Numbered from the stretch's first letter, positions 14,469 to 27,770 are shown. The stretch: DNA of 64,000 bases from an uncultured Paracoccus sp. (GCF_937873615.1 NZ_CALMYP010000065.1:97542-161541); one strand, 5' to 3'. Program-made: numbers and translations. The notes: generated from the letters alone by a model not told the origin.

Positions 14469-16817
14469 TCATCCCCGCATATGCTGGCCGGGGGCGGCCT
14501 TGCGCTGGAGTTCCAGCAGTTTCTCGCGCGCCTTCTCGGCCTCTCGGAAAGCCTGCGCCCCGCCTGCGGCATAGGGCTTCGGCCAGGCCTTGCGGTTCTG
14601 CGCGCCATACCAGGCCGCGGCCTGATTGGCGAAGAAGGGGTTCGACAGATGCGGTCGGCCAATGGCGACCAGATCGGCGCGGCGGGTGTGCAGGATGGTA
14701 TTGACCTGCCCCGGCTCGGTAATGGCGCCCACGGCCATGGTGGCCATCTTCGGCACATTGCGCACGGCCTCGGCCAGGTGGGTCTGGAACATGCGGCCAT
14801 AGATCGGCTTCTGGTCCGGCACGGTCTGCCCGGCAGACACGTCGATCAGGTCGCAGCCGGCATCGCGGAAGGCCTCGGCAATGGCGAAAAGATCCGCCTC
14901 GCTCAGCCCGCCCTCTTTCCAGTCGCTGCCCGAGACGCGCACCGACATCGGCCGATCCTCTGGCCAGACGGCGCGCATGGCCGCGAAGACCTCCAACGGA
15001 AAGCGCAGGCGGTTTTCAACGCTGCCGCCATAATCATCGCCGCGCAGATTGGTCAGCGGCGACAGGAACGAGGCCAGCAGGTAGCCATGGGCGCAATGCA
15101 GTTCCAGCATGTCGAAGCCGGCCCGCGCGGCGCGTTCGGTCGCCTGCACGAAATCGGCCTTGATCCGGTCCATGCCCGCCCGATCCAGTTCCGCCGGAAC
15201 CTGGCTTACGCCCTCGAACCACGGAATCGGAGAGGCCGAGACAAGCGGCCAATTCTCCCCGCTCTCGGCAATCGGATGATCCATCCTTTCCCAGCCAAGC
15301 TGAGTCGAGCCCTTGCGACCCGCATGTCCCAACTGCATCGCCACCTTGGCGCCGGTATTGTCGTGGATGAAATCGACGATCTCGGTCCAACGACGTTCCT
15401 GCTCGTCGGTCCACATGCCGGGGCAGCCCTGCGTGATGCGGGCATCGGCGGAAGGACAGGTCATTTCGGTGAAGATCAGCCCCATGCCGCCGGTGGCATG
15501 GCTGCAATAATGCACCTTCAGCCAGTCGGTCGGATTGCCGTCGCGGTCGCAGCTGTATTGCGCCATGGGCGACATGACGACACGGTTCATCAACTCCATC
15601 CCGCGCAGGCGGAAGCGCGAGAACATCGGCGTCGGCCGGGTCTCGCGCAGATCCTCGCCGGTTTCGCGCAGGTGACGAGAATACCATTCGTCATCGGCGC
15701 AGCGCACGAAATCGGGGTCACGCACGATCAGGTTGTCATAGGTGATCGACTTGGCGCGGCACATGACCACCATGGCGAACTGGTATGGCTCCATATCCCA
15801 GGACCGGTTCATATGCTCGAACCAGGCGAGCGACACATCGGCATTGTGCTGGATGATCTGGCAGGGCGTCCGCCGGGCCGTGTCATAGGCGCGAAAGGCC
15901 GCCTGCACATCGGTCTCGGCATGTTCCAGCAGCGCATCCGACAGCGCAATGGCGCATTCCATCGCCAGCTTGGTCCCCGACCCGATCGAGAAATGCGCGC
16001 TCGCCTTCGCATCGCCCAGGATGACGATATTGTCGACGAACCAGTTCTCGCAGAAGACGCGCGGGAAATTGCGCCAGTTCGAGCGGTTCAGCAGCAGCGG
16101 ATGGCCCTGCAATTCCTCGGCAAAGATCGCCTCAAGCTTGGCCTTGGAACCTTCCTCGTCGAATTCCTGAAATCCGTGGCCCTGCCAGGTGGCTTCGTCC
16201 ATCTCGAAGACCCAGGTCGAGCGGTCCTTCTGATACTGATAGCAATGCGCGACCATCTGGCCATGCTCGGTCTCGCGGAAGAAATAGTTGAACTCGTCCA
16301 TGGGCCGGCTGGAGCCCATCCAGCAGAAACGGTTCGATTTCCAGACCGTGCTTGGCTGGAAACCATCCTTGTAATGCTCGCGAATGGCCGAGTTGATGCC
16401 GTCGCCGGCCACGATCACGTCGGAATCGGCGAAGCGGGTCTTCAGGTCCTCGGGCTTGATCTCGACCCCGAATTCCAGGCGCACACCCAGTTCGGCGCAG
16501 CGGTCCTGCAGGATGGTCAGCAGGGTCTGGCGCGAGGTGCCGCAGAAGCCGTTGCCGGCACAGCGCATTTCCTGCCCCTTGAAATGCACGGCAACGTCGT
16601 CCCAATAGGCGAATTCGTCGCGGATGCGGTCGAAAACCGGCTTGTCGCGGCTGAGAAACTGGTCGAGCGTCTCGTCCGAGAACACCACCCCGAAGCCGAA
16701 CGTATCGTCCGGCTGGTTGCGCTCATAAACCTCGATATCCCAGTCGGGCCGCGCCTTCTTGGTCAGAAGCGCAGTATACAGCCCGCCCGGGCCACCGCCG
16801 ATTACCGTGATTTTCAA
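14469..16817 (-). CDS. Bifunctional salicylyl-CoA 5-hydroxylase / 2-aminobenzoyl-CoA monooxygenase-reductase (AbmA-like; FAD monooxygenase fused to an OYE-type domain)
   Basis: N-terminal [37 protein letters not shown]; C-terminal OYE motifs [41 protein letters not shown] start at 16817 with GGAGG 5 nt upstream. Confidence 0.9.
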
Positions 16818-16874
16818 TGCAACCTCCTGCGAATCGAAGTTCATGGGCTGACCAATCCCTAACATGCCTGAGTT

Positions 16875-16935: not shown

Positions 16936-17979
16936 TCAGTTCAGGTTCTCACGAAAGAAGATGTCCAGCTTCGGCGCCAACGCCGCGCCATCCTGCGCCG
17001 CCAGCCGGGCAATGGTGGCCTCGATCAGCAGGTTCGGGTCCAGTTCGAAAACCGCATCCATGGTGCCGTCGATCAGCGCCCGGCGGGTATCGGCGGTCAG
17101 CCCGTGCCCGATCAGGACCACATCCTGTCGCCCCCTCTCGCGCAGCGCCCGACAGATCCCGCCCGAGGCACCGCCGATATTGTAGATGCCGACGAGATCC
17201 CGGTTCTGTTCCAGCAGGGTCAGGGTATGGCGATAATTTTCGCCCGGATCGTCATGACCCTCGCGCAGCGCCATGACGGTCAGGCCGGGAAACATCTCTT
17301 CCATGATGCTCTGCACGCCCGCCTCACGCTCGGAATGCGCCCGATACTGGCGAGAGCCGGCCAGCAGCGCCACCGAACCCGTCGCACGACCGGCGAAACG
17401 CCCGATCAGCATTCCCGCCGTGCGGCCGACGGCGTGATTGTCCAACCCGACATGGGCAATCCCCGAGGCAAGGCCAAGATCGGAAACGAAGGTGACAAGG
17501 GCGGTGCCCTGGGCGGCGACCTCGGTCGCGGCCTGCCGGACCGCCGGATGCTCGATGGCGAAGAAGGCGATGCCATCGGCCCAACCGGCATTCTTGCGCA
17601 GGGCATCGGCCAGGGCATCGGCGTTGAACCCGTCAATGAAGAAGCAGCGCAGGTTGGGCGCCCCCGGCATGATCGTCGCCGCCATCCGCGCGCGCAGCTT
17701 CTCGCCCAGAAGCTGCAGATAGGGATTGCCGCCCGAAGGCAGCAGGAAGACGATATTCGGCGGCGGTCGGGTGGTATAGGCGGCGGCATCCTCGGCGCTG
17801 AGAAGTCCCATCTCGCGGGCCAGTTCCAGCACCCTCAACCGGGTGCGCTCTTTCACGCCGCGCCGCTGGTTGATGATCCGGTCGATTGTGGCCAGCGACA
17901 CCCCTGCCGCATGGGCGAGGTCTGGCAAGGTCGGGCGGCGCGGCCCATCCCCAGCAGGCTCAGAGGGTTTCGAGCACAT
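16936..17979 (-). CDS. LacI-family transcriptional regulator
   Basis: PTLPDLAHAAGVSLATIDRIINQR HTH plus periplasmic-binding-type effector domain; divergent from the TRAP operon. Confidence 0.9.
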   Translation of the reverse strand: MCSKPSEPAGDGPRRPTLPDLAHAAGVSLATIDRIINQRRGVKERTRLRVLELAREMGLLSAEDAAAYTTRPPPNIVFLLPSGGNPYLQLLGEKLRARMAATIMPGAPNLRCFFIDGFNADALADALRKNAGWADGIAFFAIEHPAVRQAATEVAAQGTALVTFVSDLGLASGIAHVGLDNHAVGRTAGMLIGRFAGRATGSVALLAGSRQYRAHSEREAGVQSIMEEMFPGLTVMALREGHDDPGENYRHTLTLLEQNRDLVGIYNIGGASGGICRALRERGRQDVVLIGHGLTADTRRALIDGTMDAVFELDPNLLIEATIARLAAQDGAALAPKLDIFFRENLN

Positions 17980-18102
17980 CAAAACACATCATTTCATTCA
18001 TTTTGACGGATGATCGCGCGATCCCTACCCTTGGTCAATACCGTTGATGCTGCGATTCATACGGCCCGAGGAGAGGCCACTCGCACATCAAATCACATCA
18101 TT
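17974..18102. promoter_or_regulatory. Pair of 20-bp direct repeats (GCACATCAAAACACATCATT at 17974-17993; GCACATCAAATCACATCATT at 18083-18102), candidate LacI-type operators
   Basis: 19/20 identical; each holds tandem CACATCA units 10 bp apart. One covers the regulator start codon, the other sits about 20 bp before the dctP start. Confidence 0.6.
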
Positions 18103-18124
18103 CCGGGTAAGGGGGAGGAAACCC

Positions 18125-19141
18125 ATGACCAAGAGCTTCACTCAGATCCACCGTCGCGGCTTCATGGCGCTTGGCGCCGGTGCTGCCGCCATGTCGCTGC
18201 TGCCGCGCCGCGGCTTCGCGCAGACCAGCCTGCGTTACGGCCATAACAACGAGCCCGCCTCGGTCGCGGGCGCACAGGCCGACTGGTTCGCCGAGGCGCT
18301 CGGCCAGACCTCGGGCGGCGATATCGAGGTGCAGGTCTTCCCGGCAAGCCAGCTCGGCAAGCTGCAGGAACTGGCCGAAGCGGTCTCGCTTGGCACCATC
18401 GCATTCTCGCATAACACCGCCGGCGCGCTAGGTTCGCTGTATGAGCCCTTCGCGGCGCTGGATACGCCTTACCTTTACCGCGACGTGGATCACCTGATGA
18501 AGGTGACCGATGTCGACAGCCCGGTCATGCAGGAACTGAACAAGGGCCTGATCGAGGCGGCGAATGTCCGCGTGATCTATGCCCATTACTTCGGCAAGCG
18601 GAACCTGACCTGCAACAAGGCAGTGATGTCGCCGGCCGACCTTGCGGGCGTCAAGATCCGCGCCGTGCCCTTCCCGATCTATACCACCGCGGTCGAGGGC
18701 ATGGGCGCCGTCGCCGTGCCGGTCGACTGGTCCGAAGTGCCGACGGCGCTCGCGACCGGGGTCGTGCAGGGGCAGGAAAACCCGGTCAATGTGGTGCTGA
18801 ACGTCAAGCTTTACGAGGTGCAGTCGCATCTGATGCTGACCGGCCACATGTCCAATGCCGAGGTCGTGGTGATGAACGAGGACGTCTGGCAGGGCATGTC
18901 CGACACCCAGAAGGACGCGGTGCGCGAAGCCGCCAGCCAGACCCGCGAGAAGGCGACCAAGGCCATTCTGGACAATGAAGAGGCCGAGACCCAGCAGCTT
19001 CGCGATCTCGGCATGACCGTGATCGGGCCGGATGAGGGGCTGGATATCGAGGCCTTCCGCGCCTCGGTCAGCAAGCTGGTCGAGGAACGCTTCGGTGCGC
19101 AATATGGCGATCTCTACGCCCAGATCGCGGCGATCGAGTGA
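18125..19141 (+). CDS. TRAP substrate-binding protein (DctP), Tat-exported, sugar-acid type
   Basis: Twin-arginine signal HRRGFMALG; FPASQLG, GVKIRAVP, VQGQENP. Confidence 0.9.
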   Translation: MTKSFTQIHRRGFMALGAGAAAMSLLPRRGFAQTSLRYGHNNEPASVAGAQADWFAEALGQTSGGDIEVQVFPASQLGKLQELAEAVSLGTIAFSHNTAGALGSLYEPFAALDTPYLYRDVDHLMKVTDVDSPVMQELNKGLIEAANVRVIYAHYFGKRNLTCNKAVMSPADLAGVKIRAVPFPIYTTAVEGMGAVAVPVDWSEVPTALATGVVQGQENPVNVVLNVKLYEVQSHLMLTGHMSNAEVVVMNEDVWQGMSDTQKDAVREAASQTREKATKAILDNEEAETQQLRDLGMTVIGPDEGLDIEAFRASVSKLVEERFGAQYGDLYAQIAAIE

Positions 19142-19674
19142 TGCAGGCCGGGACGGAAAGGCCGGGCCTTCTGTCCCGGTTGACCCATTGGGGCATCGGC
19201 GCGGGCATGGTGCTTCTGGCGCTGATGGCCGGGCTGGTCGTGCTGCAGGTGCTGGCGCGGAACCTCGTCGATATGGGCCTGCCCTGGGCGGATGAGCTGG
19301 CGCGGTTCTGCGGGATCGGGCTGGTCTTTCTGGGCGTGCCGGCGCTTGCCGGGCGCGGGGTCATGGTCTCGGTGACCATGCTGCCCGACGCGGCTCCGGC
19401 TGCGGCGCGGCGCTGGATGGTGCTGTTCGCCGATCTTGCGACGCTGGCTTTCGCGGGCCTGCTGCTGTGGAGCTTCGCCGAATTCCTGCCCCGCGCCGGC
19501 AAGTTCCTGACCCCGGCCATGCGACTGCCCAACTGGGTCTATTATTCGCTGGCGCTCGCGGGCAGCCTGATGCTGTTCGCGGTCGCCCTGCAGCGCATCG
19601 TTGCGACGCTGCGCGGCAACAATCCCGCGACCGCCTTCGGCGGCGACGATCACGACACGGTGCCCCAGCCATGA
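19141..19674 (+). CDS. TRAP small permease (DctQ)
   Basis: QVLARN...LPWADELARF; TGATG overlap with dctP. Confidence 0.87.
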   Translation: MQAGTERPGLLSRLTHWGIGAGMVLLALMAGLVVLQVLARNLVDMGLPWADELARFCGIGLVFLGVPALAGRGVMVSVTMLPDAAPAAARRWMVLFADLATLAFAGLLLWSFAEFLPRAGKFLTPAMRLPNWVYYSLALAGSLMLFAVALQRIVATLRGNNPATAFGGDDHDTVPQP

Positions 19675-20948
19675 GCCTTCTTCTCATCGCCATCTTCGCC
19701 CTGCTGCTGGCACTGGGCGCGCCGGTCGCGGTCTGCCTCGGGTTGTCCTCGGCGGTCGTGATCGTGACCCAGGGCCTGCCGGTCTCGGTGCTGGCGCAGC
19801 GCAGCCTGAACGCGCTCGACAGTTCGCCCCTGCTGGCGGTGCCGCTGTTCATCTTCGCCGCCAGCCTGCTGAACGCGACCGGCGTCACCACCCATATGTT
19901 CGACCTCGTGCGGATGATCTTCGGGCGCATCCGGGGCGCGGTGGCGCAGGTCAGCATCTTCGTCTCGCTGATCTTTTCCGGCGTTTCCGGCGCGGCGCTT
20001 GCCGATATCGGCGCGCTCGGCAAGATCCAGGTGGACGAGATGACGCGGCAGGGCTATCGCAAGGATTTCGCCGCCGGGCTGACGGTCGCGGCGGCCACCA
20101 TCGGGCCGATCTTCCCGCCCTCGATCCCGATCATCATCTATGCCTCGGTCGCCAATGTCTCGGCGGTGAAGCTGCTGATCGCGGGGATCGTGCCGGCGCT
20201 TCTGCTGACTGCCTTCCTGATGATCCAGGTGGCCGTCATCGCCCGGCTGAAATCGCTGCCGCGCGATGACATCCGCCCCGCCGCCGGCGACGTGCTGCGG
20301 AAATTCGTCTTCTCGGTCCCGGCGCTGTTCGCCCCGGTCCTGCTGATCGGCGGTCTGCTGAGCGGCTATTTCGGCCCGACCGAGGTCGCCGGCGTCACCG
20401 TGGCCTATGCGCTGCTGATCGGCATCTTCGTCTATCGCAGCCTCGGCCTGCGCAAGATCCTGGGCGCACTGCGCGAGACCACGGAAGCGACCGCGAATAT
20501 CCTGTTCGTCGTCTCCACCGCCGCCTTGTTCGCCTGGGTGCTGACGCTGGACCAGGTGCCGATGAAGGTCTCGGCGCTGATGCTGGGCGTGTCGGAAAAC
20601 CCGCTGGTGCTGCTTCTGCTGGTCAATCTCCTGCTGCTGGTCGTCGGCATGGTGCTGGAAAGCATCGCCGCGATCCTGATCATCGCCCCCATCGTCGCGC
20701 CGGCCCTGACCGCCGCCGGGGTCGATCCGCTGCAGCTTGGCATCGTTTTCGTGCTGAACCTGATGATCGGGTTGCTGACGCCGCCCGTGGGGATGAGCCT
20801 CTACATGATCTCGATCGTCGCCCGGATGCCGATCGGGCGGGTGATCGCGGGGGTCATGCCCTTCTTCATCCCGCTGCTTCTGTCCCTGCTGGTCGTGACG
20901 CTGGTGCCCCAGCTGTCGACCTGGCTTCCCGAAACCCTGATGAAGTGA
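19671..20948 (+). CDS. TRAP large permease (DctM)
   Basis: AVPLFIFAA, SGSALAD-like SGAALADIG, TIGPIFPPSIP, LLTPPVG. ATG 19671 overlaps the dctQ stop. Confidence 0.92.
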   Translation: MSLLLIAIFALLLALGAPVAVCLGLSSAVVIVTQGLPVSVLAQRSLNALDSSPLLAVPLFIFAASLLNATGVTTHMFDLVRMIFGRIRGAVAQVSIFVSLIFSGVSGAALADIGALGKIQVDEMTRQGYRKDFAAGLTVAAATIGPIFPPSIPIIIYASVANVSAVKLLIAGIVPALLLTAFLMIQVAVIARLKSLPRDDIRPAAGDVLRKFVFSVPALFAPVLLIGGLLSGYFGPTEVAGVTVAYALLIGIFVYRSLGLRKILGALRETTEATANILFVVSTAALFAWVLTLDQVPMKVSALMLGVSENPLVLLLLVNLLLLVVGMVLESIAAILIIAPIVAPALTAAGVDPLQLGIVFVLNLMIGLLTPPVGMSLYMISIVARMPIGRVIAGVMPFFIPLLLSLLVVTLVPQLSTWLPETLMK

Positions 20949-20958
20949 GGCGCGCGAG

Positions 20959-21498
20959 ATGAGCACCTTCCTTGGCCCGATCCGCCAGCTTGGCTATGTC
21001 GTCGACGATATCGAGGCGGGCATGAACTACTGGTCCGAAACCATGGGCGTCGGCCCCTGGTTCTACAATCCCGCCGTGCCGATCCGGGATTATACCTTTG
21101 ACGGTCAGCGTTACGACGTGACCAATTCCGTCGCGCTCGCCAATTCCGGCGAGATGCAGGTGGAACTGATCCAGACCCGCAGCGACACGCCCTCGATGTA
21201 TCGCGACTTCAAGGAACGGGGCCTGCGCGGCTTGCAGCATGTCGCCTTCTGGACCCGCGATTACGACCGCGACCTGAAGATGATGCTGGATCGCGGCTTC
21301 ACCCCGAAGATGAGCGGTTACGTCGGCAAGAACGGCCGCTTCGTCTATTTCGCCGAGGAACATCACCCCGGCACCTGTATCGAACTGTCCGAGGTCATGG
21401 GTCCGAAAGGCCGCATGTTCGACCTGATCCGCGATGCCGCGAAGAACTGGAATGGCAGCGACCCGGTGCGGCCTTTCCCCGACCTGTCGGGCGACTGA
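20959..21498 (+). CDS. VOC (glyoxalase/methylmalonyl-CoA epimerase-like) family protein
   Basis: IRQLGYVVDDIE, QVELIQ, GLQHVAFW, CIELSE: VOC metal-ligand pattern. Confidence 0.8.
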   Translation: MSTFLGPIRQLGYVVDDIEAGMNYWSETMGVGPWFYNPAVPIRDYTFDGQRYDVTNSVALANSGEMQVELIQTRSDTPSMYRDFKERGLRGLQHVAFWTRDYDRDLKMMLDRGFTPKMSGYVGKNGRFVYFAEEHHPGTCIELSEVMGPKGRMFDLIRDAAKNWNGSDPVRPFPDLSGD

Positions 21499-21499
21499 G

Positions 21500-22765
21500 A
21501 TGGGCCGCATCGTCGCCGAATACCGGCTGGAAACCCCCGCCGACCCAGGCGAAGTCGCCGCCATGATGGCGGGCGAGCAATCCAGCGGCACCTTCATCCG
21601 CGTCGCCGGCGAGACCGACGAATTGCGTGCCCGCGCCGCGGCCGAGGTGCTCTCGGTCGCGGAACTGCCGCCAGTGGCGCAGCCTTCGCTGCATTCCGCC
21701 TATCTGGACCGCAAGGGGATCTCTGGCCCCTACCGGCGCGCGCGGGTCCGCATCGCCTTTCCGCCGGACAATATCGGGAAGAACCTGCCGACCCTGGCCG
21801 CGACCGTGTCCGGCAATCTCTACGATATCGGCGAGATCACCGGGCTGAAGCTGACCGGGCTTTCCATCCCCGCCGATTATCGCACAGGCTATCCCCTGCC
21901 CGTGCATGGCATCGAGGGCACGCGGGCGATAACCGGGGTCGTGAACCGGCCTGTCTTCGGCACCATCATCAAGCCCAATGTCGGCATGCGCCCCGCCGAG
22001 ATCGCCGCCCTTGTCGACCGGCTCTGCGCGGCGGGCGTCGATTTCATCAAGGATGACGAGGTCTGCGCCAATCCAGACATTGCGCCGCTGTCCGAACGCG
22101 TCCCCGCCGTCATGGCGGTGATCCGCAAATGGCAGCAGCGTTCGGGCCGGCAGGTGATGATGGCTTTCAACATCACCGACGAGGTCGATGCCATGCGCCG
22201 CCATGCCGATCTGGTCGCGGCCGAGGGCGGCTCCTGCGTCATGGCCAGCCTCAACTGGTGCGGGCTATCGGGAATGGAGAGCCTGCGCGCGCATACGCCG
22301 CTGGCCATTCACGCGCATCGGAACGGCTTCGGCGCGATGTCGCGCCACCCCGCGCTCGGCATGGGTTTCCAGCCCTATCACGCGCTTTACCGGCTGGCGG
22401 GGATCGACCACATGCATGTCCATGGCATCGGCGGCAAGTTCGTCGACACGGCGGAAGAAGTGACTGAGGCCACCCGCGCCTGCCTGTCGCCGCTGTCCGA
22501 AGGCGGCCCCGACGACCGGGTGATGCCGGCCTTTTCCTCGGGCCAATGGGCCGGGACGCTGCCAGCGACGCTGGAAGCCGCGCAGGGGCCGGAACTGATG
22601 TTCATGTGCGGCGGTGGCATCCTCGCCCATCCCGAGGGGCCGGAGGCCGGCGTCGCCTCGCTGCGCGAGGCCTATGACACGTTGCGCGATGGCGACACGC
22701 TGGAAGACGGCGCCAGGACGCGGCCGAACCTTGCCGCAGCACTCCGCTTCTTCGGCGGGCGCTGA
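21500..22765 (+). CDS. RuBisCO-like protein (form IV), 3-oxo-isoapionate-4-phosphate transcarboxylase/hydrolase (OiaX)-like
   Basis: AGEQSSGTF, GTIIKPNVG (RuBisCO Lys177 position is Asn), DFIKDDE carbamate motif, HAHRNG, SSGQWAG, GGGILAHP.G. Confidence 0.85.
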   Translation: MGRIVAEYRLETPADPGEVAAMMAGEQSSGTFIRVAGETDELRARAAAEVLSVAELPPVAQPSLHSAYLDRKGISGPYRRARVRIAFPPDNIGKNLPTLAATVSGNLYDIGEITGLKLTGLSIPADYRTGYPLPVHGIEGTRAITGVVNRPVFGTIIKPNVGMRPAEIAALVDRLCAAGVDFIKDDEVCANPDIAPLSERVPAVMAVIRKWQQRSGRQVMMAFNITDEVDAMRRHADLVAAEGGSCVMASLNWCGLSGMESLRAHTPLAIHAHRNGFGAMSRHPALGMGFQPYHALYRLAGIDHMHVHGIGGKFVDTAEEVTEATRACLSPLSEGGPDDRVMPAFSSGQWAGTLPATLEAAQGPELMFMCGGGILAHPEGPEAGVASLREAYDTLRDGDTLEDGARTRPNLAAALRFFGGR

Positions 22766-23994
22766 TGGCGGCGCGGGTCGTCTTTCTGGGCGACGATTTC
22801 ACCGGCGCATCGGACAGTCTGGCCCGCTATGCCCAGGCCGGATGGCGCAGTCGCCTGCTGATCGAAACGGGGCACGCAGCCGATGATCTCGACGCGCTCG
22901 GCATCGCCACCGACCTGCGCTCTCGTCCGCCGGAGGAGGTAGGGGCCGAAATCGCCCGGCTCTGGCCGCTGATCGCCGCGCAGGACCCGCAGATCGTCCA
23001 TCTGAAGATCTGCTCGACCTTCGATTCCTCGCCCCGGATCGGCTCCATCGGGGCCATGGTCGCGGCGCTTCGCCAGCACTTCCAGCCCGAGGTTACCGCC
23101 ATTATCGGCGGCCAGCCGAGCCTTGGCCGATACCTCGCTTTCGGGCATCTTTTCGCGCGCGGCCCGGACGGGGAAATCCACCGCATCGACCGCCACCCGG
23201 TCATGGCCCGTCACCCGGTCACGCCGATGCGGGAAGCCGACATGCGCCTGCATCTGGCCGCGCAGGGCCTGCAATCGCTGGACCTTGTCACGACAGACAT
23301 GCTTGCCGATGCCGATGCGGTTGCCGTGCGGCTGCGGGCGGGGGCGGTCGTCTTCGACATCCTTCGCCAGCAGGACCTTGAACGGGTCGCCGAGGCGCTT
23401 CGCCGTGCAGGCGGGCGGCAATTGCTGGTCGGTGCAAGCTCGGTCGCGGAGATGCTGACCGGGGCCGGTCATCAGCAGAGGGCAGCCGCCGAAACGCCGG
23501 TGCCGCGGCATGGTGGCGTGCTGATCTTCGCCGGCAGCCGGTCGCCCCTGACCGGGGTGCAGGTGGCGGGTTTCCGGGATGGGCCGGTGATGCGGGCGGG
23601 GCCCGCAGACCTGGCCTCGGAGAGCTTCGCCGAGGGCTGTGCAGGGCAGTTGCGCAAGGGCCGGCCGGTGCTGGTGGCGCTGGATCCTGAGGCCGATTAC
23701 GCCATGTCGCCCGACGCTCTGGCGGATCGCTCGGTCGCGCTTCTGGCACGCATTCTTGCGCAGGTTTCGCTGGGTTATCTGGGCATTGCCGGTGGCGATA
23801 CCTCCAGCCGTATCTGCGCCGGATTGGGCTTTCATGCGCTGGAGTTCGACCACCAGATTTCGCCGGGAGTCAGTGTCTGTATCGGGCGCCATAGAGACCC
23901 GGGACGGGACCGGATGCGGCTGATGCTGAAGGGTGGGCAGATGGGCGATCCGGCACTTTTCGGGCGCTTCGTGGACTGGGCCGGAAGGCGCTGA
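22765..23994 (+). CDS. Four-carbon acid sugar kinase family (DUF1537), OiaK-like
   Basis: GDDFTGASD, LKICSTFDS, GS.S..T, AGGDTSS, LKGGQMG. Confidence 0.87.
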   Translation: MAARVVFLGDDFTGASDSLARYAQAGWRSRLLIETGHAADDLDALGIATDLRSRPPEEVGAEIARLWPLIAAQDPQIVHLKICSTFDSSPRIGSIGAMVAALRQHFQPEVTAIIGGQPSLGRYLAFGHLFARGPDGEIHRIDRHPVMARHPVTPMREADMRLHLAAQGLQSLDLVTTDMLADADAVAVRLRAGAVVFDILRQQDLERVAEALRRAGGRQLLVGASSVAEMLTGAGHQQRAAAETPVPRHGGVLIFAGSRSPLTGVQVAGFRDGPVMRAGPADLASESFAEGCAGQLRKGRPVLVALDPEADYAMSPDALADRSVALLARILAQVSLGYLGIAGGDTSSRICAGLGFHALEFDHQISPGVSVCIGRHRDPGRDRMRLMLKGGQMGDPALFGRFVDWAGRR

Positions 23995-24097: not shown

Positions 24098-25528
24098 TCA
24101 GGCGGCCTTTTCGGTCAGCCGTTCCGGCAGCGCATTGGCCCATGTGGAAATCGTGCCGGCGCCGAGGCAGACGACCATGTCGCCGGGGCGGGCCTGTTCG
24201 CGGACCAGCCGGGCGAGATCGGCCTCGTCCACCACGGCGCGGGCGTGGCGGTGGCCGTGGGCGATCAGCCCGGCGACCAGATCGTCGCGCGAGGCGCCGG
24301 GGATCGGGTCTTCGCCGGCGGCATAGACTTCGGCGATGCCGACCACATCGGCCTCGTTGAAGCAGGTGCAGAAATCGTCGAAGAGGCTGGAGAGCCGCGA
24401 ATAGCGATGCGGCTGGTGGACGGCGATGACGCGACCCTTGGTGGCCTGACGCGCGGCTTTCAGCACGGCGGCGATTTCGACCGGGTGGTGACCGTAATCG
24501 TCGATGATGGTGACCCCGTTCACCTCGCCCACGCGGGTGAAGCGGCGCCCCACCCCGCCGAATTTCGCCAGCGCCTCGCGGATCTCGCCGCGTTTCATGC
24601 CGAGGTGGCGGGCTACGGCGACGGCGGCAAGCGCGTTCGAGACGTTGTGATCGCCCGGCATCGGTAGGGTGCAGCCCTCGATCACCGGGATCTCGCCGCT
24701 TTCGTCCAGATCGGCCTCGCCCTGAAGGGCGATGTCGAAATGCGCGATGCCGTTTTCATAGGTCAGGTTCATGGCCCGCACATCGGCCTGGGCGTTGAAG
24801 CCGAAGGTGACGACGCGGCGGTCGGAGAGTTTGCCGACAAGCGCCTGCACCTCGGGGTGGTCGGTGCAGCAGACGGCGAGGCCGTAGAAGGGCACCGAGG
24901 AGGCGAAGTTGTAGAAGCCTTCGCGCAATCTGTCGAAATCGCCCCAGTGCTCCATATGCTCGGGGTCGATATTGGTGATGATGGCGATGGTCGCGGGCAG
25001 GCGGTTGAAGCTGCCGTCGCTTTCGTCGGCCTCGACCACCATCCATTCGCCGGCGCCGGCGCGGGCGTTCGAGCCGTAGGCGTGGATGACGCCGCCATTG
25101 ATGACGGTCGGGTCGAAATTGCCGGCATCGAGCAGGGTCGCGACCATGGTCGTGGTCGTGGTCTTGCCATGGGTGCCGCCGATGGCGATGTTGGATTTAA
25201 GGCGCATGAGTTCGGCCAGCATCTCAGCCCGGCGGACGATGGGCAGGCCACGGCGGCGGGCCTCCTCAAGCTCGGGATTGCCCTTCTTGATCGCGGTCGA
25301 GATCACCACCACGCCGGCATCGCCGATATTTTCCGCCCGCTGGCCTTCGAAGATCCGCGCGCCGAGCTTTTCCAGCCGGTCGGTGATCTTGGATTTCTTC
25401 GCGTCCGAGCCCTGCACGTCATAGCCGAGCGTCATCAGCACCTCGGCAATGCCCGACATGCCGATGCCGCCGATGCCGATGAAATGGATCGGGCCAAGCT
25501 CTCCGGGCAGTTTGGTGGCGGCGTTCAT
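24098..25528 (-). CDS. murC: UDP-N-acetylmuramate--L-alanine ligase
   Basis: [44 protein letters not shown]. Confidence 0.97.
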
Positions 25529-26607
25529 GCGGCGATCTCCGTGACGATTTCGTAAAGCCGCGCGGCGGCGTCGGGGCGGCCCAGTTCCCGGGCGGCCTCG
25601 GCCATGCCGGAGGCGCGCTCTGGGTCGGTCAGAATGGCGAGGATGTCGCGCGCGAGCGTGTCGGGGTCAAGTATACTTTCAGGCAGGACCATGGCGGCGC
25701 CGGCATCGGCAAGGGACCGCGCATTGGCGCTCTGGTGATCGCCCGAGGCGGCGGCATAGGGGATCAGGATCGCGGGCCGGCCGATTGCGGTGATGTCGGC
25801 GACGGAGGACGCCCCGGCGCGGCTGACGACCAGATGGCAATCGGCGAGGCGTTGCGGCACGTCCGAGAAGAAGGGCTGCACTTCTGCGGTGACGCCGGCA
25901 GCCGCATAGGCGCCGGTCACGCGGTCATGATCCTCGGCCCGGGCCTGATGGGCGACGTTGAGGCGGGCGCGGGTGTCTTCGGGCAGCGCGGCGATGGCGG
26001 CGGGCACCATGTCCGAGAGGACCCGCGCCCCCTGACTGCCGCCGATCACCAGCAGGTTCAGGGAACCGTCGCCGGGCGCGGCATAGGGGCTGGCGGCGCG
26101 GTCGAGCACGGCCTTGCGCACGGGATTGCCGGTATGGATGCCCGAGACGCCTTGCGGCAGGGTGGTGGGCCAGATGCCGCAGGCGACGCGGTCGACGCGG
26201 GGGGCGAAAAGCGCGTTCACCCGGCCCATGACGCCGTTCTGTTCGTGGATCATGCGCGGGATGCGGCCAAGACGCGCCGCCGACATGGCCGGGATGGTCG
26301 GATAGCCGCCGAAGCCCACGACCACATCGGGCCGGTCCTTGGCGAAGGCGCGCCGCGCCGCCAGCACTCCGGCGGCGATCTTGAAGGGCGCGCTGAGCTT
26401 GCCCATCAGTCCGCCGCGTGCGGTGGTGGCCGATGGCACGACCTCGCGGATCACATCCACAGGGAAAGCGCCGGCATAGCGGGCGCCGCGATCGTCGGTG
26501 GAAAGCTTCACCCGCCAGCCATGGGCCAGGAGCACCTCGGCCAGGGCCTGGGCCGGGAACATGTGCCCGCCGGTGCCGCCGGCGGCGATCAGCGCATAGC
26601 CGGGCAT
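25525..26607 (-). CDS. murG: Undecaprenyl-PP-MurNAc-pentapeptide GlcNAc transferase
   Basis: [41 protein letters not shown]. Confidence 0.97.
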
Positions 26608-27770
26608 CAGTGCCGCCGCCCGAGCACGTCGGAAATCTCGCCCTGGGGACGGTTGCGGGTCAGGGCCAGCAGCATCCCCATGGCGATGCCCGAGGCGATC
26701 ACGGACGAGCCGCCATAGCTGACGAAAGGCAGGGTCATGCCCTTGGCCGGCAGAAGCCGCACCGCAACCCCCATATTGATCAGCGCCTGCACGCCGAAGG
26801 CACAGGCCAGCCCGGTGCCGGCGATGCGCGCGAAGGGGTCGCGTTCACGCAAGAGCCGCATCAGCGAGCGGAAGACGATGGTGGCGTAAAGCGCGATGAT
26901 GACGAGGACCAGGATCAGGCCGTATTCCTCGGCCGCGACGGCGATGATGAAATCGGTATGGGCATCGGGCAGCGACCATTTCACCGTGCCCTCGCCCACG
27001 CCGACGCCGAAGAAGCCGCCTTCCTGAATGGCGTTGGTGGCATAGCCGATCTGGGTGCGGGGGTCGATCTCGGCGGTCAGGAAGCCGTCGATGCGGCGGG
27101 CGAAATGCTCGGACGCGCCATAGGCGAAGACGCCGCCCATCACCGTCATCGCCGCGACCCCGCCCAGAAGCCAGAGCGGCGCACCGGCGACGAAGAACAT
27201 CACGCACCAGGAAAACAGCACCAGCGAGCCCTGTCCGAAATCGGGCTGCATGACCAGCATTCCGACCACGCCCATGGTGATGACGAAGCTGATCGACTTG
27301 CCGGGCGGGCCGCCGACCTCCTGGCTGGCGGCCATGCACCAGGCCATGGCAGCGACGAAACAGGGTTTCAGGAATTCCGAGGGCTGGACCGAGGCGAAGC
27401 CGAGGCTGAGCCAGCGCGTCGCCCCCTTGCCGAAATCGGTGCCGATCACCGGCAGAAGCGCCACCACCACGACCGAGACGACAAAGCCGATCACGCCGAT
27501 CCGGCGGATCTGCTGGGGGCCGAACATCGAGATGACCAGCATCGCCGCCAGCCCTACCCCGCCGAAGAAAGCCTGGCGGATGACGTAATAGAAGGGCGGC
27601 AGGTTGTTCTTTTCGGCCAGCGGCACCGAGGCGGCGAGGCCCAGAAGAAGCCCGATGGCAAAGAGGATGAGCACCGCGAACAGGGACCAGCGGTCCACCG
27701 TCCGCCACCATCTTGGAAGAATCGGATCGCCAACCCGCGCGGGAATCGCGCCGAATACCATCTCGGTCAT
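26607..27770 (-). CDS. ftsW: SEDS peptidoglycan polymerase FtsW
   Basis: [43 protein letters not shown]. Confidence 0.95.

Follow-up and report, generated by a model that had tools for sequence, protein, structure and literature searches.

A conserved TRAP–VOC–RuBisCO-like protein–DUF1537 kinase operon in Paracoccus and its probable role in the catabolism of an oxidised acid sugar

Main Finding

In the 64,000-nt stretch of Paracoccus DNA analysed here (the window), an operon combining a TRAP transporter, a VOC-superfamily enzyme, a RuBisCO-like protein (RLP) and a DUF1537 kinase matches no described pathway, and our literature search found no publication describing such a VOC–RLP–kinase module. 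Comparative sequence data and analogy with characterised systems make it, on balance, probable that this is a mobile operon, repressed by a LacI-family regulator, for an acid sugar already bearing a carbonyl, with the VOC enzyme, the kinase and the RLP acting in this order. An oxidised sugar acid would most likely be catabolised in this way without any dehydrogenase.

Structure of the Locus

The lacI gene (16936–17982, minus strand; PF00356 and PF13407; likely start the ATG at 17979) is divergent from six genes on the plus strand: dctP (18125–19141; TRAP solute-binding protein of 338 aa, PF03480, TIGR00787), dctQ (19138/19141–19674; small permease, PF04290), dctM (19671–20948, starting from the ATG at 19671; large permease, PF06808, TIGR00786), the VOC-superfamily gene (20959–21498; 179 aa, PF13669), the RLP gene (21500–22765; 421 aa, PF02788 and PF00016), and the gene of the DUF1537 (four-carbon acid-sugar) kinase (22765–23994; 409 aa, PF07005 and PF17042). 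All seven genes are thus found in the compact divergent arrangement proposed in the initial annotation. The dctP/dctQ junction is an overlap (GTGATG), ATGA is common to the stop of dctQ and the start of dctM, TGATG is common to the RLP and kinase genes, and the gaps preceding the VOC and RLP genes are 10 and 1 nt, respectively; judging by its sequence, the operon is translationally coupled. A domain search of the operon reveals no oxidoreductase or dehydrogenase among its genes, in agreement with the earlier reading that an NAD-dependent dehydrogenase or oxidoisomerase is absent from the locus. The flanking genes, a 2-aminobenzoyl-CoA monooxygenase/reductase-type gene upstream and murC/murG/ftsW downstream, belong to separate units.

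Two copies of a 20-nt direct repeat, identical at 19 of 20 positions, are candidate operators. The first, GCACATCAAAACACATCATT (17974–17993), overlaps the lacI start and contains a pair of ACATCA half-sites spaced by 10 nt; the second (18083–18102) closely precedes the ribosome-binding site of dctP. ACATCA pairs with the same 10-nt spacing are also observed in several orthologous intergenic regions, and the position and orientation of lacI are retained in 79 of 80 related loci. The operon would be LacI-repressed, self-contained, horizontally mobile and catabolic.

DctPQM constitute a complete three-component TRAP transporter, with DctP and DctM scoring above the cut-offs of TIGR00787 and TIGR00786, respectively. 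DctP carries a twin-arginine signal (HRRGFM...AQ), and its model has a pLDDT of 88.9. Sequence and fold searches place it nearest to SiaP and to four EFI structures of acid-sugar TRAP binding proteins, 4P47, 4NQ8, 4PDH and 4P9K; among solved structures of TRAP binding proteins, the closest by sequence are 4NQ8, 4P9K/4PAK and 4PDH, which we take to be binders of D-erythronate or pantoate. DctP is 76–90% identical to DctP of the other alphaproteobacterial loci, Thalassospira excepted, while Paraburkholderia has, beside the module, a TRAP system from another lineage (DctP identity 25–29%, DctQM fused).

Conservation of the Module

The module, that is, LacI divergent from binding protein–permease–VOC–RLP–kinase, retains its order and orientation in 75–79 of the 80 related loci collected from alpha-, beta- and gammaproteobacteria (LacI and VOC present in 79 loci each, the kinase in 75, the binding protein in 72). 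Every other gene cluster is confined to at most 24 loci, and no conserved dehydrogenase or any other conserved gene is seen beside the module in these 80 loci of three classes. As judged from gene order, this recurrence far exceeds chance.

Module carriers belong to Rhodobacterales, Hyphomicrobiales, Thalassospira, Burkholderiales and Halomonas. The module is found on plasmids of Alloyangia, Sulfitobacter, Roseivivax, Azospirillum and Burkholderia, with different flanks in each. Of 401 Rhodobacterales genomes sampled, 15 contain the VOC-linked RLP clade, which also occurs in many genera associated with plants (Variovorax, Paraburkholderia, Azospirillum, Herbaspirillum, rhizobia).

The RuBisCO-Like Protein and Its Clade

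The protein has the PF02788 and PF00016 fold with some RuBP-specific residues replaced (K177 by Asn, W66 by Phe, H298 by Phe or Tyr, G381 by Gln), as expected of form IV RLPs; it is encoded by the only RLP gene of the genome, and its context contains neither a small subunit nor CBB genes. Residues E60, T65, N123, K175, K201, D203, E204, H294, R295, H327 and K334 are invariant in 81 RLP sequences, and all 81 have Asn at the K177 position. By sequence, the RLP is an orthologue of PDB 3NWR (573 bits, full length), a structural-genomics entry from Burkholderia fungorum whose molecule name, "a rubisco-like protein", assigns no function; two Paraburkholderia fungorum loci (L051 and L068) have the same VOC–RLP–kinase module.

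The closest described systems are the oxidative D-apiose/D-apionate routes 1 and 2, which, according to the accounts of Carter et al. (2018) given in PMC13753588 and PMC6302742, proceed via ApnO and OiaK to an RLP, either OiaX (decarboxylase) or OiaT (transcarboxylase/hydrolase). They share with the Paracoccus operon an adjacent, translationally coupled pair of DUF1537 kinase and RLP genes near a transporter and a repressor, and OiaK is the top model for the kinase. On the other hand, ApnO is absent from both the operon and the genome, and the VOC gene is found in its place; the K177 position is Asn here, Ala in OiaX and Ser in OiaT-like RLPs; import relies on a TRAP system, in contrast to the ABC systems of the plasmid apiose clusters examined (R. 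etli and Labrenzia); and TIM-like and RpiB-like isomerases, present in the R. etli OiaX cluster, are missing from the module.

The RLP cannot be classed as OiaX: its score with the OiaX model is 404 bits (curated equivalog cut-off 700), it is 40% identical to the annotated OiaX of R. etli CFN42 (p42f), lacks ApnO context and belongs to a separate clade. Moreover, N123 and H327, both retained here, are replaced in OiaX by Gly and Gln, respectively. The kinase also stays far below its cut-off (199 bits vs. 700 for OiaK), and the suggestion of the initial annotation that the locus is a variant of the OiaK/OiaX logic, rather than OiaK/OiaX themselves, agrees well with these data. N123, H327 and K334 are also kept in the ApnO-linked RLPs, called OiaT-like here from the absence of downstream isomerases, to which the RLP is 42–49% identical. 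Assignment to this OiaT-like clade, a comparison made by clade membership, was rejected, as the VOC-linked RLPs form a clade of their own (support 100/100), sister to the ApnO-linked one (100/99).

The distribution of VOC and ApnO follows this division. The 80 VOC-type loci contain no apnO; among Rhodobacterales RLPs, those at 58–61% identity have VOC in five cases out of five and ApnO in none, while out of fifteen at 45–50% identity, thirteen have ApnO and none VOC. Gene context and the tree taken together, VOC and apnO are mutually exclusive between the RLP clades. RLPs of both types co-occur in five of the 15 carrier genomes, four of these being from one genus. True OiaX was not found in a sample of 300 Alphaproteobacteria genomes. 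The ApnO queries were two proteins taken from the clusters annotated in R. etli and Labrenzia; NF042434, NF042435 and NF042438, considered as ApnO models, all turned out to be unrelated families.

The VOC Enzyme

The protein belongs to the VOC superfamily (Glyoxalase_4, PF13669) and has the expected strand and helix order of paired beta-alpha-beta-beta-beta modules in one chain, as in methylmalonyl-CoA epimerase (MMCE) and glyoxalase I. Its model (pLDDT 93.6) retrieves MMCEs and 3GM5 as the best Foldseek matches, with the Clostridium glyoxalase I also among the closest. This likeness is confined to the fold, and the protein is not an MMCE equivalog: the TIGR03081 score is 20.7 bits (cut-off 114.95), and the protein shares 14–19% of its residues with the characterised MMCE structures, or 28% in the case of 3GM5, a putative MMCE. 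It further differs from MMCE and glyoxalase I in an additional C-terminal helix and tail of approximately 35 residues, and in the genomic context, which is devoid of CoA or glutathione metabolism. Its nearest paralogues (45–48% identity) have no conserved or informative neighbours.

Q10, E69, H94 and E142 are invariant in the orthologue alignment at the four canonical VOC metal-ligand positions, which in this superfamily lie on strands 1, 4, 5 and 8. This Q/E/H/E set, presumably that of human glyoxalase I, differs from the 2-His-1-carboxylate set of VOC dioxygenases. MMCE and glyoxalase I both shift a proton via a metal-bound enolate or enediolate. The fold together with the invariant Gln/Glu/His/Glu set therefore points to proton transfer rather than oxygenase chemistry, and we propose that the VOC protein is a metal-dependent isomerase (or epimerase) preparing the substrate of the kinase. 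The gene is hardly a dispensable neighbour, as it is present in nearly all loci and is translationally coupled to the RLP gene here. Wherever it occurs among these loci, the RLP gene follows it immediately.

The Kinase and the Rest of the Genome

The kinase has the domain architecture of the DUF1537 family (PF07005, SBD_N, 164 bits; PF17042, NBD_C, 68 bits), and its gene is single-copy in the genome. Beside OiaK, it matches OtnK with 145 bits (cut-off 350) and DtnK with 82 bits (cut-off 450), so that the models of 3-oxo-acid kinases rank above that of D-threonate kinase; each score being below the curated cut-off, it is not an equivalog of any of the three.

The genome is 99.6% complete, and the search for apnO called for by the initial annotation, done by tblastn with the two ApnO queries, gave no match in it, and the refuting condition set there, an apnO gene elsewhere in the genome, does not hold. 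LtnD or DenD equivalogs are likewise absent from the genome; a generic paralogue of the HIBADH family, matching the LtnD model with 184 bits, could in principle supply the oxidation from elsewhere. An OtnC equivalog (C23) is encoded elsewhere among unrelated neighbours. It was rejected as a missing partner of the module, since OtnC equivalogs are no commoner in module carriers (6 of 15 genomes) than across the order as a whole (66 of 151).

Proposed Pathway and Alternatives

We infer the order of steps from the ApnO–OiaK–OiaX/T and OtnI–OtnK–OtnC series, and infer likewise which reaction each enzyme catalyses and on what substrate the pathway acts. The TRAP system would import the free acid. 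The VOC enzyme, with its MMCE/glyoxalase-I-like metal site, would then isomerise it by proton transfer via a metal-bound enediolate, with no net redox change, filling the place of the NAD-dependent ApnO of the apionate pathways and yielding an acid of the 2,4-dihydroxy-3-oxobutanoate type that may bear a substituent at C2. The DUF1537 kinase would phosphorylate the 4-hydroxyl. The RLP, for which we propose C–C chemistry on a beta-keto acid phosphate based on its complete carbamate-Lys/Mg site and N123, H294, H327 and K334, would decarboxylate this compound or, like OiaT, transcarboxylate and hydrolyse it, with central metabolites as the end products. The initial annotation had offered two options, import of an already oxidised substrate or an isomerase/epimerase step provided by the VOC protein; the comparative evidence supports them, and probably both hold together.

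On chemical logic only, L-aceric acid (3-C-carboxy-5-deoxy-L-xylose) fits as the leading candidate substrate. Isomerised from aldose to ketose, it would give the 1-hydroxyethyl homologue of 3-oxo-isoapionate, and the end products would be 3-phosphoglycerate and lactate, or 5-deoxypentulose-1-phosphate; if the RLP gives the former pair, three enzymes would suffice. It is a tentative possibility, on the unlikely side, that the module is the first catabolic route for this sugar, a branched acidic component of pectin RG-II, with the VOC protein being a new type of aldose–ketose isomerase that gives 2-(1-hydroxyethyl)-2,4-dihydroxy-3-oxobutanoate, the kinase phosphorylating this product, and the RLP transferring CO2 intramolecularly and hydrolysing as RuBisCO does. 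The genomic data lend this candidate no support: GH127, a possible link to aceric acid, was found neither in the 80 loci, nor in the genome itself, nor in the 15 module-carrier genomes, and the sole GH127-adjacent RLP encountered (Croceibacterium) falls in the ApnO-linked clade.

The four-step pathway of L-threonate and D-erythronate, reportedly described by Zhang and co-workers in 2016 and comprising LtnD or DenD, OtnI, OtnK and OtnC, has the same logic, with an isomerase, a 4-kinase of the 3-oxo acid and CO2 loss from a beta-keto acid phosphate. It differs from the module, which lacks a dehydrogenase, has an isomerase of the VOC fold instead of the OtnI TIM-barrel type, an RLP instead of the class II aldolase-fold OtnC as the decarboxylase, and a kinase well below the OtnK cut-off. 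The substrate might still be L-threonate, D-erythronate or a 2-oxo- or uronate-type C4 acid, with the VOC protein standing in for OtnI, the isomerase that converts 2-oxo- to 3-oxo-tetronate, or acting as a 3-oxo-tetronate 2-epimerase, the kinase acting as OtnK, the RLP replacing OtnC to yield DHAP and CO2, and an unlinked dehydrogenase contributing if oxidation is needed. Such a route would be self-contained down to DHAP, and is consistent with the OtnK match, with the presumed D-erythronate or pantoate ligands of the DctP relatives, and with the MMCE-like fold, which suits the removal of a proton between a carboxylate and a carbonyl. We nevertheless hold it to be unlikely, given that no dehydrogenase is conserved in the approximately 80 loci, that the genome has no LtnD or DenD equivalog, that the kinase prefers the OiaK model to OtnK, and that OtnC is equally common with and without the module.

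Direct import of a ready-made 3-oxo acid sugar, passed straight to the kinase and the RLP, was the first option of the initial annotation and agrees with a module free of oxidoreductases; the VOC protein would then be an accessory, active in detoxification or, as MMCE-like enzymes are epimerases, in epimerising the wrong stereoisomer. This is improbable in view of the near-universal, coupled VOC gene directly upstream of the RLP gene, which swaps with ApnO between the clades. Moreover, free beta-keto acids are unstable and hence unlikely as environmental nutrients.

A different order or chemistry, with the RLP as an enolase or isomerase and the VOC enzyme acting downstream, seems distinctly improbable. 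Some RLPs, MtnW and that of R. rubrum among them, are indeed known to catalyse enolisation and isomerisation, and the gene order VOC–RLP–kinase is compatible with it; but the nearest functionally assigned relatives are 3-oxo-isoapionate-4-phosphate enzymes (40–49% identity), the MtnW models score far lower (114–141 bits), and the metal-ligand set of the VOC protein is unlike that of VOC dioxygenases. Finally, the ordinary D-apionate pathway via OiaK/OiaX with apnO elsewhere in the genome, although no NCBIfam models score better than OiaX and OiaK, is scarcely credible given the sub-threshold scores, the fruitless ApnO search of an almost complete genome and the clade of the RLP, apart from the ApnO-linked ones.

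Implications

RLPs are the main window on uses of the RuBisCO scaffold apart from CO2 fixation, and to our knowledge only a handful of their reactions are known. The VOC-linked clade has had a crystal structure (3NWR) since 2010 and is still without an assigned function. Because the whole cassette amounts to three enzymes with one transporter and one repressor, it is unusually amenable to experiment. Solving the module would give a new RLP reaction or substrate and a new VOC isomerase activity replacing an NAD-dependent oxidoisomerase, and would reveal a nutrient that ties these bacteria to plants or algae.

Structure and conservation of the cassette

The initial annotation described a lacI gene divergent from a dctPQM–VOC–RLP–kinase operon devoid of oxidoreductases, and both the layout and this absence are borne out by ORF listing and profile searches. 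The LacI-family gene (16936–17982, minus strand) faces, on the plus strand, dctP (18125–19141, encoding a binding protein with a twin-arginine signal), dctQ (ending at 19674), dctM (19671–20948), and genes for a VOC protein (20959–21498, 179 aa), a RuBisCO-like protein (RLP; 21500–22765, 421 aa) and a DUF1537 kinase (22765–23994, 409 aa). Successive operon genes meet in the overlaps GTGATG (dctP/dctQ) and ATGA (dctQ/dctM), then across gaps of 10 nt and 1 nt, and finally in TGATG (RLP/kinase), and the operon is therefore translationally coupled. The flanking genes are foreign to it. The cassette (16936–23994) is wedged between a 2-aminobenzoyl-CoA aromatic cluster (14469–16865), which contributes the upstream FAD/OYE-type 2-aminobenzoyl-CoA monooxygenase/reductase-like gene, and the dcw cell-division cluster (24098–27770), with murC, murG and ftsW downstream.

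Scanning one genome per species for relatives of the RLP yielded 533 stretches, and the conservation counts cover the best 80 of these (RLP identity 59–86%), in which the module order and orientation recur. LacI is found in 79 of these 80 loci, as is the VOC protein (the lone exception being a 1.6-kb contig), the kinase in 75, a binding protein in 72 and a permease in 70. No further gene cluster is conserved around the module in more than 24 of the 80, and the non-module genes that do recur are members of generic multicopy families whose distance from the module varies (ABC ATPase, TctC, MFS, SDR, aldehyde dehydrogenase). VOC orthologues of at least 58% identity always accompany the RLP module. 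Several alphaproteobacteria also have second-tier VOC paralogues (loci L103–L109), 45–48% identical and retaining the Q/E/H/E residues, with no RLP or kinase neighbours and no conserved context.

The module is present in Roseobacteraceae, Paracoccus, Hoeflea, Mesorhizobium, Thalassospira and Azospirillum, as well as in Variovorax, Paraburkholderia, Bordetella, Herbaspirillum and Halomonas. Its flanks differ in every other genome, and it often resides on a plasmid or chromid; annotated plasmid copies have six or seven module genes identical in kind, with unrelated flanks each time. Moreover, the RLP tree places two lineages of VOC-type RLPs, one Roseobacter-like and one Halomonas-like, within the genus of the window, a sign of horizontal transfer. 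The cassette behaves like a mobile unit. The only oxidoreductase seen inside any module copy is a short-chain dehydrogenase, whose gene separates lacI from the binding-protein gene on a plasmid of Neorhizobium sp. NCHU2750 (L101, 4159–4965).

VOC-linked and ApnO-linked RLPs

The wider RLP group was detected in 56 of 401 Rhodobacterales genomes, and 20 loci were fetched. Those with RLPs at 58–61% identity all have LacI–TRAP–VOC–RLP–kinase and no apionate oxidoisomerase (ApnO) (5/5), and those at 45–50% identity have ApnO within 10 kb in 13 of 15 cases and VOC in none of the 15. ApnO is also absent from the VOC-type loci (0/80). VOC and ApnO are mutually exclusive across the RLP loci. In a maximum-likelihood tree of 39 RLPs, all 19 VOC-linked proteins group in a single clade on a stem of length 0.56 (support 100/100), and a second clade (100/99) unites the ApnO-linked RLPs with the OiaT-like sequence from Labrenzia and that from Croceibacterium. 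R. etli OiaX and one Rufibacter RLP fall outside both.

Placement relative to OiaX and OiaK, proposed in the initial annotation and done here by tree and model scores, puts the RLP in a separate clade and leaves both proteins below the equivalog cut-offs (404 bits for OiaX and 199 bits for OiaK, cut-off 700 in each case). Annotated OiaX proteins (R. etli p42f, S. meliloti pSymB) share 39–40% identity with the window's RLP. The R. etli cluster exemplifies the canonical setting of OiaX, which is accompanied there by a kinase, isomerases of the TIM-like and RpiB-like types, ApnO, an ABC transporter and a dehydrogenase of the Gfo family. R. etli ApnO is annotated as a “phosphogluconate dehydrogenase C-terminal domain” protein; the ApnO fold is KARI-like, and ApnO–OiaK–OiaT constitute “route 2” (PMC13753588). 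Among solved structures, 3NWR (573 bits) is nearest to the window's RLP; it is an RLP from Burkholderia fungorum whose deposition assigned no function.

Two further loci deserve mention. A Rufibacter tibetensis plasmid (L097, 10001–14692) encodes an RLP and a DUF1537 kinase along with an Asp/Glu-racemase-fold protein and a transporter of the bile-acid:sodium symporter family, adjoining pectinesterase and GH28 genes; this is a third kind of cassette, with the racemase-fold protein at the place held elsewhere by VOC or ApnO. In L116 (G959:C23:158208–159449) an ApnO-linked-type RLP lies inside a 995-aa open frame, which suggests either that it is fused to a neighbouring gene or that it extends far upstream.

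Transporter and enzymes

DctP is 76–90% identical in the alphaproteobacterial loci except Thalassospira. Most Burkholderiales loci have DctP of another lineage (24–29% identical) and a fused DctQM, and the one Ramlibacter locus checked (L027) has an ABC-type permease gene at the transporter position. The transporter is exchangeable, and the enzymatic core is therefore VOC–RLP–kinase under a LacI repressor. The DctP model (pLDDT 88.9) and sequence search place this protein among SiaP and EFI acid-sugar TRAP binding proteins, the EFI neighbours being 4P47, 4NQ8, 4PDH and 4P9K/4PAK; all but the first are presumably complexes with pantoate or D-erythronate.

In a 47-sequence alignment, VOC residues Q10, E69, H94 and E142 are invariant and occupy the four metal-ligand strands of the superfamily. 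This Gln/Glu/His/Glu set is that of human glyoxalase I and differs from the 2-His-1-carboxylate set of extradiol dioxygenases. The best structural matches of the AlphaFold model (pLDDT 93.6) are methylmalonyl-CoA epimerases, the putative epimerase 3GM5 and Clostridium glyoxalase I, enzymes that all shift a proton adjacent to a carbonyl group via an enolate or enediolate bound to the metal. Three arginines, the invariant R127 and the nearly invariant R74 and R82, could bind an acid substrate.

In 81 VOC-type RLPs (residues numbered by their RuBisCO counterparts), E60, T65, N123, K175, K201, D203, E204, H294, R295, H327, K334, G403 and G404 are invariant, while K177 is always replaced by Asn, W66 by Phe and G381 by Gln, and H298 by Phe or Tyr. 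In OiaX, E60 is replaced by Asp, N123 by Gly, K177 by Ala and H327 by Gln; where ApnO-linked RLPs lack downstream isomerases, N123 and H327 are retained and K177 is Ser. The incoming carboxyl group of RuBisCO is held by N123 and K334, and H327 has been proposed to assist hydration and cleavage. The retention of N123, H327 and K334, with no downstream enzyme in the module, favours RLP chemistry ending directly in central metabolites, either by transcarboxylation and hydrolysis in the manner of OiaT or through a C4 substrate that is decarboxylated to DHAP.

Candidate operator

The lacI–dctP intergenic region contains two copies, 19/20 identical, of a 20-nt direct repeat GCACATCAAA[A/T]CACATCATT, one over the lacI start (17974–17993) and a second immediately ahead of the ribosome-binding site of dctP (18083–18102). 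Each includes two ACATCA half-sites 10 nt apart, and ACATCA pairs with this spacing are also observed in several orthologous intergenic regions (e.g., loci L046, L064, L031, L049, L077). The repeat is a candidate operator; direct-repeat operators are unusual among LacI-family repressors.

Proposed pathway and candidate substrates

In the mechanism that we consider rather probable, the TRAP transporter would import a free acid, the VOC protein would act on it by redox-neutral proton transfer, the DUF1537 protein would serve as a 4-kinase, and the RLP would act last, on the kinase product. ApnO delivers the 3-oxo acid through oxidation and rearrangement, whereas the VOC-linked sister clade has a putative redox-neutral proton-transfer enzyme instead. 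No dehydrogenase is conserved near the module in the best 80 of 533 loci, and none is recognisable in the window's genome. Given this replacement and the lack of a dehydrogenase, the substrate should be as oxidised on arrival as a 3-oxo acid sugar, but with its carbonyl placed elsewhere. This description fits two kinds of substrate, namely an aldose with the carboxylate on C3 and a four-carbon aldehyde acid or 2-oxo acid.

A route of the tetronate type, with its dehydrogenase encoded away from the operon, seems doubtful. The genome has a single RLP and a single DUF1537 gene, whose product scores lower with the OtnK model (145 bits, cut-off 350) than with that of OiaK and reaches 82 bits with that of D-threonate kinase; equivalogs of LtnD (best 184 bits, cut-off 350) and DenD (best 63 bits, cut-off 325) were not found in this genome. 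As a separate observation, an equivalog of the 3-oxo-tetronate-4-phosphate decarboxylase OtnC (300 bits, cut-off 250) is present elsewhere in the genome (G000:C23:75691–76299; L140, 9671–10510, minus strand), although the genome's only DUF1537 kinase is that of the operon. It lies among unrelated genes (aconitase family, peptide ABC transporter), and 66 of 151 Rhodobacterales genomes have OtnC-like genes regardless of module presence.

That the cell takes up a 3-oxo acid already formed, and that the VOC protein plays only an accessory part, is improbable, and a different step order or different RLP chemistry slightly more so. The ordinary apionate pathway with apnO elsewhere in the genome is contradicted and hardly credible, as the search for apnO suggested in the initial annotation gave no tblastn match with R. 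etli and Labrenzia ApnO queries in this 99.63%-complete genome, and the RLP falls outside the ApnO-linked clade.

For the generic mechanism, L-aceric acid, OHC-CHOH-C(OH)(COO-)-CHOH-CH3, is an exact fit on paper: a 1,2-shift would convert it to HOCH2-CO-C(OH)(COO-)-CH(OH)CH3, the 1-hydroxyethyl homologue of 3-oxo-isoapionate. We regard it as a tentative candidate, well below the generic mechanism, because the tests gave no genomic support. No GH127 gene was found in the best 80 loci, the window's genome or 15 carrier genomes, and no paper on aceric acid catabolism in the literature searched. A Croceibacterium plasmid (NZ_CP156083.1; L096, 6175–11352) has GH127, RLP, DUF1537 kinase and GDSL esterase genes in one string, surrounded by genes for a fucosidase, beta-galactosidases, a TonB receptor and a protein of the sialidase family, and resembles a locus of the RG-II type; the annotation shows neither ApnO nor VOC near the string, and its RLP belongs to the ApnO-linked clade, not the VOC clade.

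If L-aceric acid is the substrate, OiaX-type chemistry after phosphorylation would yield 5-deoxypentulose-1-phosphate, and OiaT-type chemistry, 3-phosphoglycerate and lactate. Public annotations of the module proteins read only “VOC family protein”, “RuBisCO large subunit family protein” and “four-carbon acid sugar kinase family protein”, and no description of the module was found in the literature searched; it belongs with the RLP/DUF1537 acid-sugar catabolic modules.
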